60,776 nt of DNA. It comes from an uncultured Fibrobacteraceae bacterium (GTDB lineage Bacteria; Krumholzibacteriota; Krumholzibacteriia; LZORAL124-64-63). Location: positions 1-60,776 of the forward strand of contig CAYPVD010000001.1 of assembly GCA_964414055.1 (NCBI GenBank), written 5' to 3'. Each line of letters opens with the position of its first letter. Position 1 is the stretch's first letter. The position numbers and the translations under genes are program-made. Below, piece after piece: positions 36,860 through 39,456 of this stretch. The notes under the pieces were generated by a model. It was given only the letters and a program-made list of their open reading frames with translations, searched no databases and was not told the origin of the DNA.

Positions 36860-37513
36860 TCAGACGTTTTTTCCGGGTCCGTCGGCGAAGGAATCCAGCA
36901 GCCCTTGGGCAAACAGGCGATCACCTTTGTCCCGCAGGCGGCGCCAGCCCGCATTCAGGACCTCGGTGGTTCGAGGATCCAGGTCCTGACTTCCCCAGCG
37001 GACAAGCCAATCGGCCATCCCATCCTCCAGGGTGTCCATCACCGACAAGGGCCCGGCCGCCCGCTCCAGTCGACCGGTCGCCTCCCGCCAGCCCGGATCG
37101 CCCGCCAGATCCGCCGACCTCGCCCCCGCATCCAACCGCTCCAGCAACTTCTCCAAGAAGCCTGCCAGATGATCCCACGCGGGATCCAGTTGGGGATCGC
37201 ATCTCTCGGGAACGCTCGTCAGGGTATGGTGAATCTGCTGCAGGATCCCGTTCAAGCGGGACAAGGCATCCTCGAGAACGGGATCCGCCTCCTGTTCCAG
37301 GATGGCCAGGGCGAACTCCATGCGTTTGAAGGCGGACACGGGGACGGGCCCGTCAAAAGGCCCTGCCCGGCCGAGTTGGGAATCCAGTTCGGCCAGGCAG
37401 GCGCTCAGACGGTCAATGGCTGCGGTCAGGTTCGCGGTTTCGGACACGTGACGCTCTTTCGCCGGGGTCAGGTCGCTGGGCCCGGCCACACGCCGGGGGA
37501 CCCGTCCCGTCAA
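36860..37513 (-). CDS. Hypothetical helical protein (no family recognised)
   Basis: Composition is protein-like and predicted all-helical. The TTG start overlaps the upstream stop (TTGA). In-frame GTG alternatives exist further downstream. Confidence 0.5.
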   Translation of the reverse strand: MTGRVPRRVAGPSDLTPAKERHVSETANLTAAIDRLSACLAELDSQLGRAGPFDGPVPVSAFKRMEFALAILEQEADPVLEDALSRLNGILQQIHHTLTSVPERCDPQLDPAWDHLAGFLEKLLERLDAGARSADLAGDPGWREATGRLERAAGPLSVMDTLEDGMADWLVRWGSQDLDPRTTEVLNAGWRRLRDKGDRLFAQGLLDSFADGPGKNV

Positions 37514-39456
37514 TCCAGGCGCCGCGCTCCGAATTCGCTCAGGTCATAAACCCGGTCGTCCCCGGCGGCCTTGCGCAGGGGTTCGGAAATCAGGACGGCT
37601 CCGAACTCGGCCAGGTCATAAACCCGTTCATCGTTCCGGTCGATCCGCTTGGCACCCAGTTCGGCCAGATCGTACACCTTATCTTCCGGGCCCGGAAGCC
37701 CGGTTTCGGCCGGGTCGGCGTCCGTAGAAGCAAAGACATCCTCCTGGCCCGGCAGAACGTTGTTGGAAACCTGGAAGGGGTCCAGGGCGCTTCCCTGTAC
37801 GGTCACCGTCTCCTGCCGCTCAAGGAACGGGTCGATGACCGCGACGTCCTCCTCCGGCTCCTTCTTCAGGAAGGGATCGAACTGGGTCAGCTGCAGATCC
37901 GGGCCGCCGTGGTCCGAAGCCCCCGCGGCATCGAACTGAACTCCCGTCAATTCCGCGCAGACCTGCCCGATCCTGTCCAGGCGTTCGTACTGGGGCTCGA
38001 AGCTGTCGGCGATCTTGACCAGGTTGCCGGCGGCATCCCTGGCTGCCTCGCCCAGCTTCCGGACCAGCTGGGGCAGGTTCCGCTGCGGCCTGCCAGCCGC
38101 TTTATCCAGGCTTGCAAGCTGTTCTTCCAGACGCTCCAGAAGGCCTCCGGAAATGCCCGTACTCCCTGCCGCAGCCGCTTCTCCGTCACCGCCCTGCTGT
38201 CGGATGGTCCGCGTCAGCTCTTCCAAGGTCTGGGCCATGGGCCCCAGCCGTTCCCCGCGATTGCCCAGGCGGGCGACTTCCATGCCGATCTGGAAACTCA
38301 GCTTGGCCAGTCGGTCCGAAAGGTCAGAGGTCACGCCGGCCCCGGCCCCGCCGGAAGCCCCTGTGCGGCCGGCCAGGTCGGCCTTGAGATCCTGCAAAAG
38401 CTGCCGGACGGCCTCCGGATCCCAGCCGAACCGGGGATCCCCGGCGAGCTGGCTGCCGGCGGCGGTCAGGTGGGCGCCGGCCTTCTGCACCGCGTCTCCC
38501 TGCAGATTCAACTGATCCAGGGTGAAACGCTGCCAGCCGCGGGCATCCTGCAGGTGGTCCATCAACTCGTGGCCCTTGCTTCCCAGCCGCGCCTTCCAGC
38601 TCTCCAGCTCCTCCTGGGCGGCATCGCGCGCATCATGCAGCTGCACGACCTCGTCGGCTATCATGCCCACCACGGGCACGTCGAACTTGCTGGCCAGATC
38701 CTCCCGGGAGTCCTCACTCAGGGCTTTCTCCAGGCGATGGAGCTCGCCTTCCAGGCCGACGACCCGCTGCAGGCGGGATTCCTGGTGGCGCCAGGCACCC
38801 AGGATCTCGGCCGTGAAGCTTTCGGTCTCGGGCTTCATCTTGAACAGCGGATCGGCCCAGGCGTCCTGGTTGTCCAGCCGCAGGGACGTCAGCCGTGACA
38901 GCAACTCGCCCTGGGATGCCACCCGTTGTTTGAGGTCGCCGATGATGCTGCCCAGGCGGTACCCCACCATGCCCAGCAACAGGACCGATGAGGCCAGCAC
39001 CGCGAAGAAGACGTGCTGGGGATGCTGGTTGAGATCATAGAGGGTATTCAGGCTCGTCAGGCCCGAGAAATCCCACAGCTGTGTGGGGTTCCCCTTGAAG
39101 AGGAAGGTCAAGGCGCTGAACAGGCCCGTGCCCACGATGAGGGTGCAGGCAGCCGGCAACATGCCCCAGGCCCAGGCCGGGGTGTTGTTTTCCTGCTGCT
39201 TGTGCCAGGGTCGCAAGGGAGGCGCGGGTGGTGTCGCGACGGACTGTTGTTCCGCCCCGGATTGTTCCGTATCCATCACCGGATCCGGCGGCGCAGAAGG
39301 CACCGAAGCTGTCGGCTCCGAGATCTCCTCGTCGGCGGCCAGATCCATGAAGTCGGCGAATCCCTCCGGAGGTGCCTGATTCCTCCTGCGGGAACCGCCC
39401 TGCCTGGAACCGCCCTTGGTGCGTGCCTTACCGGAATTGCGCTTGCGTTGGTTCAT
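37510..39456 (-). CDS. Hypothetical two-TM coiled-coil protein with basic N-terminus, MCP-tip-like segment and C-terminal peptide repeats
   Basis: ATG at 39456 (MNQRKRNSGKARTK...). The two TM helices are WAWGMLPAACTLIVGTGLFSALTFLF and VFFAVLASSVLLLGMVGY. A long coiled-coil region follows. See the findings for details. Confidence 0.65.
   Translation of the reverse strand: MNQRKRNSGKARTKGGSRQGGSRRRNQAPPEGFADFMDLAADEEISEPTASVPSAPPDPVMDTEQSGAEQQSVATPPAPPLRPWHKQQENNTPAWAWGMLPAACTLIVGTGLFSALTFLFKGNPTQLWDFSGLTSLNTLYDLNQHPQHVFFAVLASSVLLLGMVGYRLGSIIGDLKQRVASQGELLSRLTSLRLDNQDAWADPLFKMKPETESFTAEILGAWRHQESRLQRVVGLEGELHRLEKALSEDSREDLASKFDVPVVGMIADEVVQLHDARDAAQEELESWKARLGSKGHELMDHLQDARGWQRFTLDQLNLQGDAVQKAGAHLTAAGSQLAGDPRFGWDPEAVRQLLQDLKADLAGRTGASGGAGAGVTSDLSDRLAKLSFQIGMEVARLGNRGERLGPMAQTLEELTRTIRQQGGDGEAAAAGSTGISGGLLERLEEQLASLDKAAGRPQRNLPQLVRKLGEAARDAAGNLVKIADSFEPQYERLDRIGQVCAELTGVQFDAAGASDHGGPDLQLTQFDPFLKKEPEEDVAVIDPFLERQETVTVQGSALDPFQVSNNVLPGQEDVFASTDADPAETGLPGPEDKVYDLAELGAKRIDRNDERVYDLAEFGAVLISEPLRKAAGDDRVYDLSEFGARRLD
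37513..37683 (-). repeat. In-frame triple repeat encoding (K/R)VYDL(A/S)E(L/F)GA at the C-terminus of the 648-aa protein
   Basis: The DNA repeat units are ccgaattcgctcaggtcataaaccc, ccgaactcggccaggtcataaaccc and cccagttcggccagatcgtacacc. The peptides are KVYDLAELGA, RVYDLAEFGA and RVYDLSEFGA. Confidence 0.85.

Follow-up and report, generated by a model that had tools for sequence, protein, structure and literature searches.

The stretch of DNA analysed here, 60,776 nucleotides (nt) from an uncultured Fibrobacteraceae bacterium (positions 1-60,776 of contig CAYPVD010000001.1, assembly GCA_964414055.1), is referred to as the window and encodes on its minus strand a membrane protein of 648 amino acids (aa), hereafter called the receptor. 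The receptor is very probably a highly divergent, lineage-specific hairpin protein derived from the methyl-accepting chemotaxis proteins (MCPs), and the reading that is best overall, and probable on balance, is that of an MCP-derived membrane scaffold that has been orphaned from its kinase and docks its partners through short peptides in its tail. The neighbouring CheA-like gene decays stepwise across living lineages while the receptor, its tip and its repeats stay constrained.

A word-indexed search has identified 21 proteins of the receptor family down to 30% identity, and a scan of species-representative genomes 38 loci. When 1.84 billion representatives were searched exhaustively with a profile, 136 proteins were retrieved, among them those of a second family. 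Wherever these loci are classified, they belong to Candidatus Krumholzibacteriota, Krumholzibacteriia or 'uncultured Fibrobacteraceae', and the family is confined to Candidatus Krumholzibacteriota. Conservation and hairpin statistics refer to 45 full-length family sequences and synteny to 45 loci. All family members found are named 'hypothetical protein' in the databases, and a literature search has found no paper describing the family, its repeat motif or its locus. Outside the receptor family and a sister family described below, the profile search at E<=1e-3 returned two true MCPs only, which align over the hairpin.

Profile-profile comparison places the receptor in the superfamily of the MCP signalling domain. 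The profile of the 45 sequences aligns over 227 columns with an MCP profile (Tar, Tap and two MCPs from metagenomes) at an hhalign probability of 95.0% and an E of 3.7e-8, so that residues 269-508 of the receptor are opposite residues 246-483 of Tar. In this alignment, FQIGMEVARLGNRGERLGPM lies in register opposite the Tar tip, and the MCP motifs on either side of it, one QQAASLEET-like and the other IAxxSxEQSxGIxQV-like, keep the register with the family profile as well. Reversed-profile controls give scores of 20-28 and probabilities of 0.2-2.8%, with 0.4% for the 45-sequence profile, compared with scores of 46-72 in the real comparisons; the first hhalign comparison reached 60% only. The tip block at residues 379-415 shares 8 identities and about 7 conservative matches with the E. 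coli Tar tip over 37 positions, which together with the register of the alignment bears out the first-pass annotation, made from the sequence without database searches, that a segment at about 38200-38325 resembles a chemoreceptor hairpin tip. As to membership of a known family such as a standard MCP, the placement by hhalign holds at the superfamily level and the curated PF00015 threshold of 34.6 bits is not reached, neither the window protein nor any of the 21 family members giving a PF00015 match at E<=10. The receptor is a new lineage-specific MCP-derived variant, not a standard MCP.

The exhaustive search has also revealed a sister family that shares with the target family an N-terminus of two transmembrane (TM) helices and the juxtamembrane ...ERWR motif and aligns with it at 99.4% (hhalign, E 4e-21). 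PF00015 is matched at E<=0.1 by 26 of the 54 sister members, the best match having an E of 5e-8 and 33.4 bits against the 34.6-bit cut-off, and sister members also match several NCBIfam MCP models. The sister tip reads NRLAINAALQVSRLGESGxEL..VTEEIRxLSxRY, and the C-terminal end consists of two VYDLSEFGAVEL repeats. When the tips are lined up, they change by degrees from MCP to the sister family, then to protein P0084 and finally to the target family. Judged from these profiles, the receptor-like character of the protein, which had been proposed as that of a receptor-like scaffold, is upgraded from a resemblance to remote homology at the superfamily level, with the sister family strengthening the receptor-like part of the proposal.

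The conservation profile of the family is mirror-symmetric about residue 399.0, with r of 0.94 for the full profile and 0.83-0.90 without the tip block, and this centre ranks first of the 280-360 centres tested, also when the tip block is left out. Arm W308-R396 has a length of 88 residues and arm R403-R492 one of 89, and the two lengths co-vary across the 45 sequences with r of 0.74 (for example 73/75, 78/80 and 92/94). Insertion hot spots are found after residues 363 and 436, each exactly 36.5 residues from the centre. The turn consensus across the 45 sequences is G-(P/A/N/S)-(R/K)-G-E-R-L-x-P, and the predicted U-turn at G398-G401 would correspond to the protein-interaction tip of MCPs at the end of the antiparallel coiled-coil hairpin formed by residues 269-508.

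The tip block is among the two best-conserved blocks of the family, with a mean identity to the target of 73%. Gln-389, Glu-393, Arg-396, Gly-398, Arg-403 and Pro-406 are invariant, Gly-401 is conserved in 43 and Leu-404 in 44 of the 45 sequences. Compared with the canonical consensus, E, R, G and G are retained, and the substitutions are N to Q, F to L and VV to PM. The exact tip block KLAFxIAMEVARLGPRGERLLPM also turns up inside otherwise unrelated sequence in two short database entries, P0102 with 248 aa and P0108 with 146 aa, the sequence of P0102 running on into a lysozyme-like GRYQF segment; both are probably chimeric assemblies or frameshifted calls.

The gene downstream of the receptor gene, gene B, corresponds by its position to a CheA-like gene. 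Its longest open reading frame (ORF) has as start codon a TTG overlapping with the stop codon of the receptor gene and encodes 217 aa, and gene B orthologues start about 36-45 nt past the receptor stop, so the true start probably lies further downstream. The window gene B has no Pfam or NCBIfam match. In its own clade, the sister family occupies exactly the position of the receptor and is therefore its positional orthologue, and there gene B encodes a protein of 684-738 aa with HATPase_c (E about 1e-3), CheW-like (E 6.6e-6, its 26 bits exceeding the cut-off) and Response_reg (E 6e-9) domains. The core of this protein aligns with residues 332-599 of E. coli CheA, covering P4 and P5 (71%, E 4e-5), and its receiver matches CheY structures. 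The N, G1 and G2 ATP-binding boxes look degenerate by inspection, and the sequences suggest that the sister-clade protein may already have been a pseudokinase with a pseudo-receiver before the gene shrank. In the CheA-like proteins at L046:10724-12940, L047:10104-12197 and L048:10363-12417, the three boxes seem to be missing, and neither the acidic pair nor the conserved Lys of the receivers seems, by eye, to be present.

Across the 45 loci, the gene B products form a length series of about 700, about 320, 250-290 and about 200 aa, the window gene belonging to the shortest class, and gene B is absent in L018, L022, L033 and L038. The 200-aa class, including the window gene, matches the N-terminal part of the 320-aa class (hhalign, 99.9%). 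The C-terminal parts of the 320-aa and 250-290-aa classes are receiver-like, with an hhalign match of 96-97% to the receiver found in the 700-aa proteins, and the match of the N-terminal part of short gene B products to the 700-aa proteins is collinear but weak, with a probability of 6-17%. Retention of a CheA P1 or histidine phosphotransfer (Hpt) domain in the window gene B was considered and rejected on the basis of this weak match and the lack of any match to E. coli CheA. The tip of the receptor and one to six tail repeats are kept in every locus, including those without gene B; the receiver of gene B has been rejected as an obligatory partner of the VYDL repeats, because the repeats persist where gene B lacks a receiver or is absent.

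In the window itself, a tblastn search with E. coli CheY, CheB, CheR, CheW, CheZ, Tar and Tap and with the sister CheA-like proteins has detected no gene for CheA, CheW, CheR, CheB or an MCP, in agreement with the first-pass annotation that che genes are missing here. The only che-like match in the window is a receiver domain at 15132-15476 on the minus strand, with 28% identity to E. coli CheY (E 3e-7).

The tail of the receptor is predicted to be disordered: in an AlphaFold2 (AF2) model, the predicted local distance difference test score (pLDDT) is below 50 over residues 514-595 and most of the remaining tail, which has no regular structure. Within it, the three DPF motifs (starting at residues 527, 542 and 559) and the three (K/R)VYDL(A/S)E(L/F)GA repeats reported earlier are present as described, VYDLAELGA, VYDLAEFGA and VYDLSEFGA starting at residues 594, 612 and 636. 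In the DNA, the VYDL repeats correspond to three direct repeats of 35 nt within 37526-37686. Both motif types are conserved in homologues, a point that the first-pass annotation had singled out for checking. The pattern [VI][YHF][DE]Lx[ED][FL]GA occurs in one to six copies in every full-length homologue, with the last copy near the C-terminus, and all 83 of its 83 matches in 874 kb of six-frame translation fall inside genes of the receptor family. Mean identity to the target is 72% for repeat 2 and 79% for repeat 3, compared with 19-32% for the linkers of the tail. At least one DPF motif, and usually two or more, is present in every member of the target family, and the first two are invariant in the 21-sequence alignment (P528, F529, D542, P543 and F544); the sister family has none. 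The tail motifs are not due to chance, and in the alignments they appear as conserved islands on a disordered background, the pattern expected of short linear or docking motifs.

A further conserved peptide, PPEGFADFMDLA, lies in the poorly conserved N-terminal cytoplasmic segment, with 45% identity compared with 15-19% for its flanks. It contains EGFADF (residues 31-36), which the first-pass annotation had overlooked and which has an EGFADF-like counterpart in 18 of the 21 members. The VYDL-type repeat is expanded to at least six copies in L017 (about 11280-11700) and in L043:7095-9359. In L017 the copies have a regular spacing of 84 nt (28 aa), which indicates that the docking peptide has probably undergone recent tandem duplication. 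As for loose likenesses to other peptides, DPFL(K/E), as in FDPFLKK and IDPFLER, somewhat resembles the FtsZ C-terminal peptide D-I-P-x-F-L-R-K and may mimic it, DPF and FxDF may be analogues of eukaryotic endocytic motifs, and VYDLSEFGA somewhat resembles the CheY-binding C-terminus of CheZ, DDLLDSLGF, for which the CheZ sequence has been verified.

The maximal ORF at the receptor gene extends over 37510-39714 on the minus strand (734 aa). The start at 39456 (MNQRKR..., 648 aa) has an AAGGA-like site upstream, and Met-1 is invariant, 20 homologues starting at the equivalent Met in the alignment; the 648-aa product is therefore taken as correct, as it had been called. The basic N-terminus, the two TM helices and the triple tail motifs make up an architecture that likewise stands, apart from the length of the coiled coil: this had been put at about 470 aa, and the helical cytoplasmic region covers only about residues 171-508 (about 335 aa), the last 140 aa being predicted to be disordered. 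The basic N-terminus and basic residues after TM helix 2 would place both termini in the cytoplasm according to the positive-inside rule. The loop between the two TM segments, which hydrophobicity locates at about residues 98-120 and 147-170, is presumably periplasmic and only 26 aa long, so the receptor has no ligand-binding domain. Residues 171-268 are a juxtamembrane module specific to the family, in which the motif VGLEGELHRLEKAL has a mean identity to the target of 0.86 across the 45 sequences, with G234, E236, G237, E238, H240, R241, L242, K244 and A245 invariant.

The receptor gene lies in a block of about 13.7 kb (window 33005-46710) that is collinear across the phylum (L001-L048) down to a receptor identity of 30%. 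Read in the direction of the receptor gene (tblastn, 45 loci), the block consists of a backward S8 peptidase gene, forward genes for a glycosyltransferase, a HAD protein and an alpha/beta hydrolase, the backward gene A, the forward receptor, B, HTH_17 and STAS/HD-GYP genes, and a backward gene for CdaA. The S8 peptidase has a FlgD_ig or type IX secretion system (T9SS)-type C-terminus, and the glycosyltransferase is of the QTMAN_N type. The receptor (30-64% identity) and gene B diverge far faster than HTH_17 (66-98%) or CdaA (60-89%). As for co-occurrence with the genes for the 217-aa, 213-aa and STAS/HD-GYP proteins, which the first-pass annotation had wanted checked, gene A nearly always accompanies the receptor gene, the HD-GYP gene always does, and gene B is variable or absent. 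The HTH_17 gene is at the same position in 43 of the 45 loci. Its product matches mad1 in PADLOC (E 5e-6), most likely through generic helix-turn-helix similarity; matches to defence models are absent from the rest of the block, and PADLOC gives nothing for the receptor.

The HD-GYP gene starts 8 nt past the HTH_17 stop codon, and the only terminator-like site found between the receptor gene and the end of this gene string follows the HD-GYP gene; a scan for sigma-70 promoters at the locus found nothing. Because the receptor stop codon overlaps the start of the gene B ORF, the HTH_17 and HD-GYP genes are only 8 nt apart and no terminator-like site intervenes, the products of this putative operon are the first candidates for partners of the receptor. 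By motif inspection, the HD position of the HD-GYP protein reads RD (LLRDIGL) in the window and LLRD[IV]G in every orthologue in which the motif has been located, including the sister clade, and HHERFSGEGFP is kept, the GYP position being GFP or GYP. The intact HD and GYP motifs of an HD-GYP phosphodiesterase are thus not present together, and the RD motif suggests that the protein may be an altered or inactive phosphodiesterase. A swap from GAF to STAS at its N-terminus accompanying the loss of the kinase has been rejected, because the N-terminus is STAS-like in all clades. Gene A is present in the sister clade as well and has 101 homologues, all unnamed and apparently from the same lineage only, in which E34, P46, D53-E54-D55 and N57 are near-invariant. 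Its AF2 model is confident and all-alpha (pLDDT 89, predicted TM-score (pTM) 0.81), with no fold match in the PDB (best E 0.87). The idea that the protein has one of the known folds of peptide-binding or Che proteins was rejected, and its fold may be new.

Table 1. Positions of the receptor gene, its parts and the genes around it in the window
Feature	Residues	Coordinates	Strand	Basis or remark
Coding sequence of the MCP-derived membrane protein	1-648	37510..39456	-	ORF list and homologue starts; stop codon included
N-terminal cytoplasmic peptide PPEGFADFMDLA	29-40	39337..39372	-	Conserved inside a poorly conserved tail
TM helix 1	about 97-120	39097..39168	-	Kyte-Doolittle windows >1.4; helix in AF2 model
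TM helix 2	about 147-170	38947..39018	-	Kyte-Doolittle windows >1.4
Juxtamembrane motif VGLEGELHRLEKAL	233-246	38719..38760	-	Best-conserved block of the family
MCP-signalling-domain-like antiparallel hairpin	269-508	37933..38652	-	hhalign and mirror symmetry
Hairpin-tip block DRLAKLSFQIGMEVARLGNRGERLGPMAQTLEELT	379-415	38212..38322	-	In register with Tar tip
Predicted U-turn G398-N-R-G401	398-401	38254-38265	-	Counterpart of MCP tip
Disordered C-terminal tail	509-648	37513..37932	-	AF2 pLDDT; low conservation between motifs
DPF motifs FDPFLKK, IDPFLER, LDPFQVS	526-532, 541-547, 558-564	37774..37878	-	
Tail repeat 1, KVYDLAELGA	593-602	37651..37680	-	
Tail repeat 2, RVYDLAEFGA	611-620	37597..37626	-	
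Tail repeat 3, RVYDLSEFGA	635-644	37525..37554	-	Four residues before the C-terminus
Gene B	at most 217 aa	36860..37513	-	Positional counterpart of CheA-like gene
HTH_17 DNA-binding protein	86-aa ORF	36415..36675	-	Pfam PF12728, E 5e-14
STAS / acidic linker / HD-GYP protein	767 aa	34104..36407	-	Pfam HD_5 2.5e-24, STAS 7e-7
Gene A, all-alpha, lineage-specific	213 aa	39746..40387	+	Divergent; beside the receptor gene in nearly all loci

A plausible course of events would begin with an ancestral Krumholzibacteriota locus in which a receptor and a CheA-like hybrid with degenerate ATP boxes stood upstream of the HTH_17 and STAS/HD-GYP genes. In the lineage of the window, the CheA-like gene would have been reduced to the remnant of 217 aa, and the receptor would no longer drive a kinase and would serve as a membrane scaffold instead. 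The tip and the multivalent peptides, namely three VYDLxEFGA, three DPF and the N-terminal EGFADF, may bring at least one soluble partner to the membrane. Proteins encoded in the receptor's own transcription unit would be the likeliest partners, namely the RD-type HD-GYP protein through its STAS domain, the HTH_17 protein, or both, so that a membrane or cytoplasmic cue might be linked to signalling related to cyclic di-GMP (c-di-GMP) or to gene expression without phosphotransfer. The chances that the receptor does work by a scaffold or tether mechanism are about evenly balanced. A bolder form of the proposal, in which a chemoreceptor-derived membrane lattice signals without a kinase, its tip and peptides recruiting the RD-type HD-GYP/STAS and HTH_17 proteins into a phosphorylation-independent 'pseudo-chemosensory' pathway of degenerate parts, is tentative and rather unlikely.

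Several observations weigh against an MCP-derived scaffold that works without a kinase. Pfam and NCBIfam give no match for the receptor or any of the 21 members, so that the first-pass statement that no family is recognisable holds for these two databases and gives way only to the hhalign placement in the MCP signalling-domain superfamily; a faint ZorA_3 match (E 0.69) has been dismissed. A profile search of PDB sequences with the receptor family finds designed coiled coils only and no MCP. The AF2 monomer model, based on 21 sequences, is all-helical over residues 94-504 and unstructured afterwards (pLDDT 61, pTM 0.30), and its helix runs unbroken through residues 375-423 across the proposed turn. 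A continuous helix at this place is implausible because of the turn consensus. MCP structures head the Foldseek list for this model, which also contains helical bundles, without significance (best E 3.5e-3, TM 0.16). Since neither AF2 nor Foldseek gives anything decisive, the hairpin has been judged by the tests of sequence evolution. A canonical MCP with 41-42% identity to E. coli Tar and Tap (tblastn) is found at the edge of L013, and genes for flagella and chemotaxis have been reported from one Krumholzibacteriota metagenome-assembled genome (PMC10936416). Ordinary chemoreceptors thus exist in the lineage besides the receptor family, and the tip could pair with CheA and CheW encoded elsewhere. 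Finally, the whole neighbourhood of 15 kb, including unrelated enzymes, is syntenic, and adjacency to the HTH_17 and HD-GYP genes is therefore weak evidence of coupling.

These ordinary chemoreceptors speak for the receptor being a working chemoreceptor itself, the tip of which uses canonical CheW and CheA encoded elsewhere and the repeats of which tether CheR, CheB or a CheY-like protein. MCP homology, the hairpin and the retention of E393, R396, G398 and G401 are in agreement with this, as are repeats that are acidic with two aromatic residues, in this respect pentapeptide-like, and bear the loose likeness to the CheZ C-terminus. However, the tip departs from the MCP consensus at most positions (NAA to QIA, GF to RL and VV to PM) and no family member obtains a PF00015 score, the protein has no sensory domain, not a single che gene is found in the 60-kb window, and the repeats neither fit xZxxZ nor lie at the extreme C-terminus. 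Moreover, the neighbouring CheA-like gene decays and the receptor stays constant. A working chemoreceptor is thus unlikely.

The long helical cytoplasmic domain, the disordered multivalent tails at both ends, the absence of an enzymatic domain and the loose likeness of FDPFLKK and IDPFLER to the FtsZ peptide would also suit a membrane protein with a structural or positional role, for instance as a polar landmark, as a tether for division or the cytoskeleton, or as part of an array-like lattice in which contacts between tail and body hold the molecules together, for which the MCP ancestry would be irrelevant and the neighbours would not be partners; synteny throughout the phylum could then be explained by inertia. 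Such a role appears distinctly unlikely, because no likeness to EzrA, ZipA, DivIVA-type or other structural families is found in Pfam, NCBIfam or the PDB, because the tip block is the type of surface that binds signalling partners in MCPs, and because the sister family lacks DPF and yet retains the tip and the VYDL repeats. A merely convergent or compositional resemblance of an unrelated new family to MCPs, for which the lack of a direct Pfam match, the designed coiled coils in the PDB search, a Foldseek TM below 0.3, the 60% of the first hhalign comparison and the ease with which coiled coils align could be adduced, is highly improbable in view of the reversed-profile controls, three separate MCP signature motifs in register, symmetric indels typical of MCP hairpins, and an intermediate sister family at the same locus with PF00015 matches and an adjacent CheA-like gene.

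If the receptor is indeed an MCP-derived scaffold, its locus would be a natural experiment on what an MCP hairpin does without its kinase, and a five-gene block found across the candidate phylum, the annotation of which goes no further than hypothetical, would obtain its first plausible role. The peptide motif, being exclusive to the family, can be used to hunt for partners, and a whole clade of MCP descendants is overlooked by annotation pipelines.

Because CheA and CheW dock onto it, the tip of chemoreceptors ranks with the best-conserved protein surfaces of bacteria. The receptor resembles MCPs such as E. coli Tar and Tsr (PF00015) in its two-TM topology with both termini inside, in its cytoplasmic antiparallel hairpin with symmetric arm indels, in a tip in which E-x-A-R-x-G-x-x-G is in register with residues 383-393 of Tar, in a disordered C-terminal tail with short acidic and aromatic peptides, and, in the sister clade, in a CheA-like neighbour. 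It differs from them in having no PF00015 score, substitutions at most tip positions, an invariant P406 and a C-terminal arm about 30 residues shorter than that of Tar. It has no periplasmic or PAS sensor and no recognisable HAMP domain or methylation sites, the latter without a systematic search for the methylation consensus. The association with CheA and CheW that goes with functional chemoreceptors is missing from the 60-kb window and is represented in the sister clade by the CheA-like neighbour, and the cognate kinase gene of the receptor would be the remnant in the window.

In the Wsp system, a chemosensory pathway of the type with alternative cellular functions controls c-di-GMP through the MCP WspA, the CheA-receiver hybrid WspE and WspR. 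The sister-clade locus follows a like logic, since its gene string combines a receptor related to MCPs with a hybrid of CheA and receiver and with an output domain of the c-di-GMP type. Unlike in Wsp, the output protein is an RD-type HD-GYP protein with a STAS N-terminus rather than a receiver-GGDEF protein, an HTH_17 gene is interposed, and the kinase, the boxes of which already look degenerate in the sister clade, is lost in the lineage of the window.

A precedent for the proposed docking is the tail of Tar and Tsr, in which a pentapeptide of acidic and aromatic character, attached by some 35 residues of disordered linker, tethers CheR and CheB (PMC7390727). Like this tether (NWETF, or xZxxZ with Z standing for F, W or Y), the receptor peptides are short and acidic, contain two aromatic residues and follow an unstructured linker beyond the hairpin. 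Unlike the tether, the receptor motif is a 9-10-mer, [KR][VI][YH]DLxEFGA, present in one to six copies with a Y-to-F spacing of 5 instead of 3 (Y-x4-F), the C-terminus ...VYDLSEFGARRLD does not end in xZxxZ, no CheR or CheB gene is nearby, and DPF and EGFADF motifs are present in addition. A STAS domain also occurs in the chemosensory gene strings of alpha-proteobacterial che operons, where the STAS protein CheS of S. meliloti binds CheA (PMC12654446). In the receptor locus, the STAS domain is the N-terminus of the 767-aa HD-GYP-type protein and might bind the receptor or its peptides.

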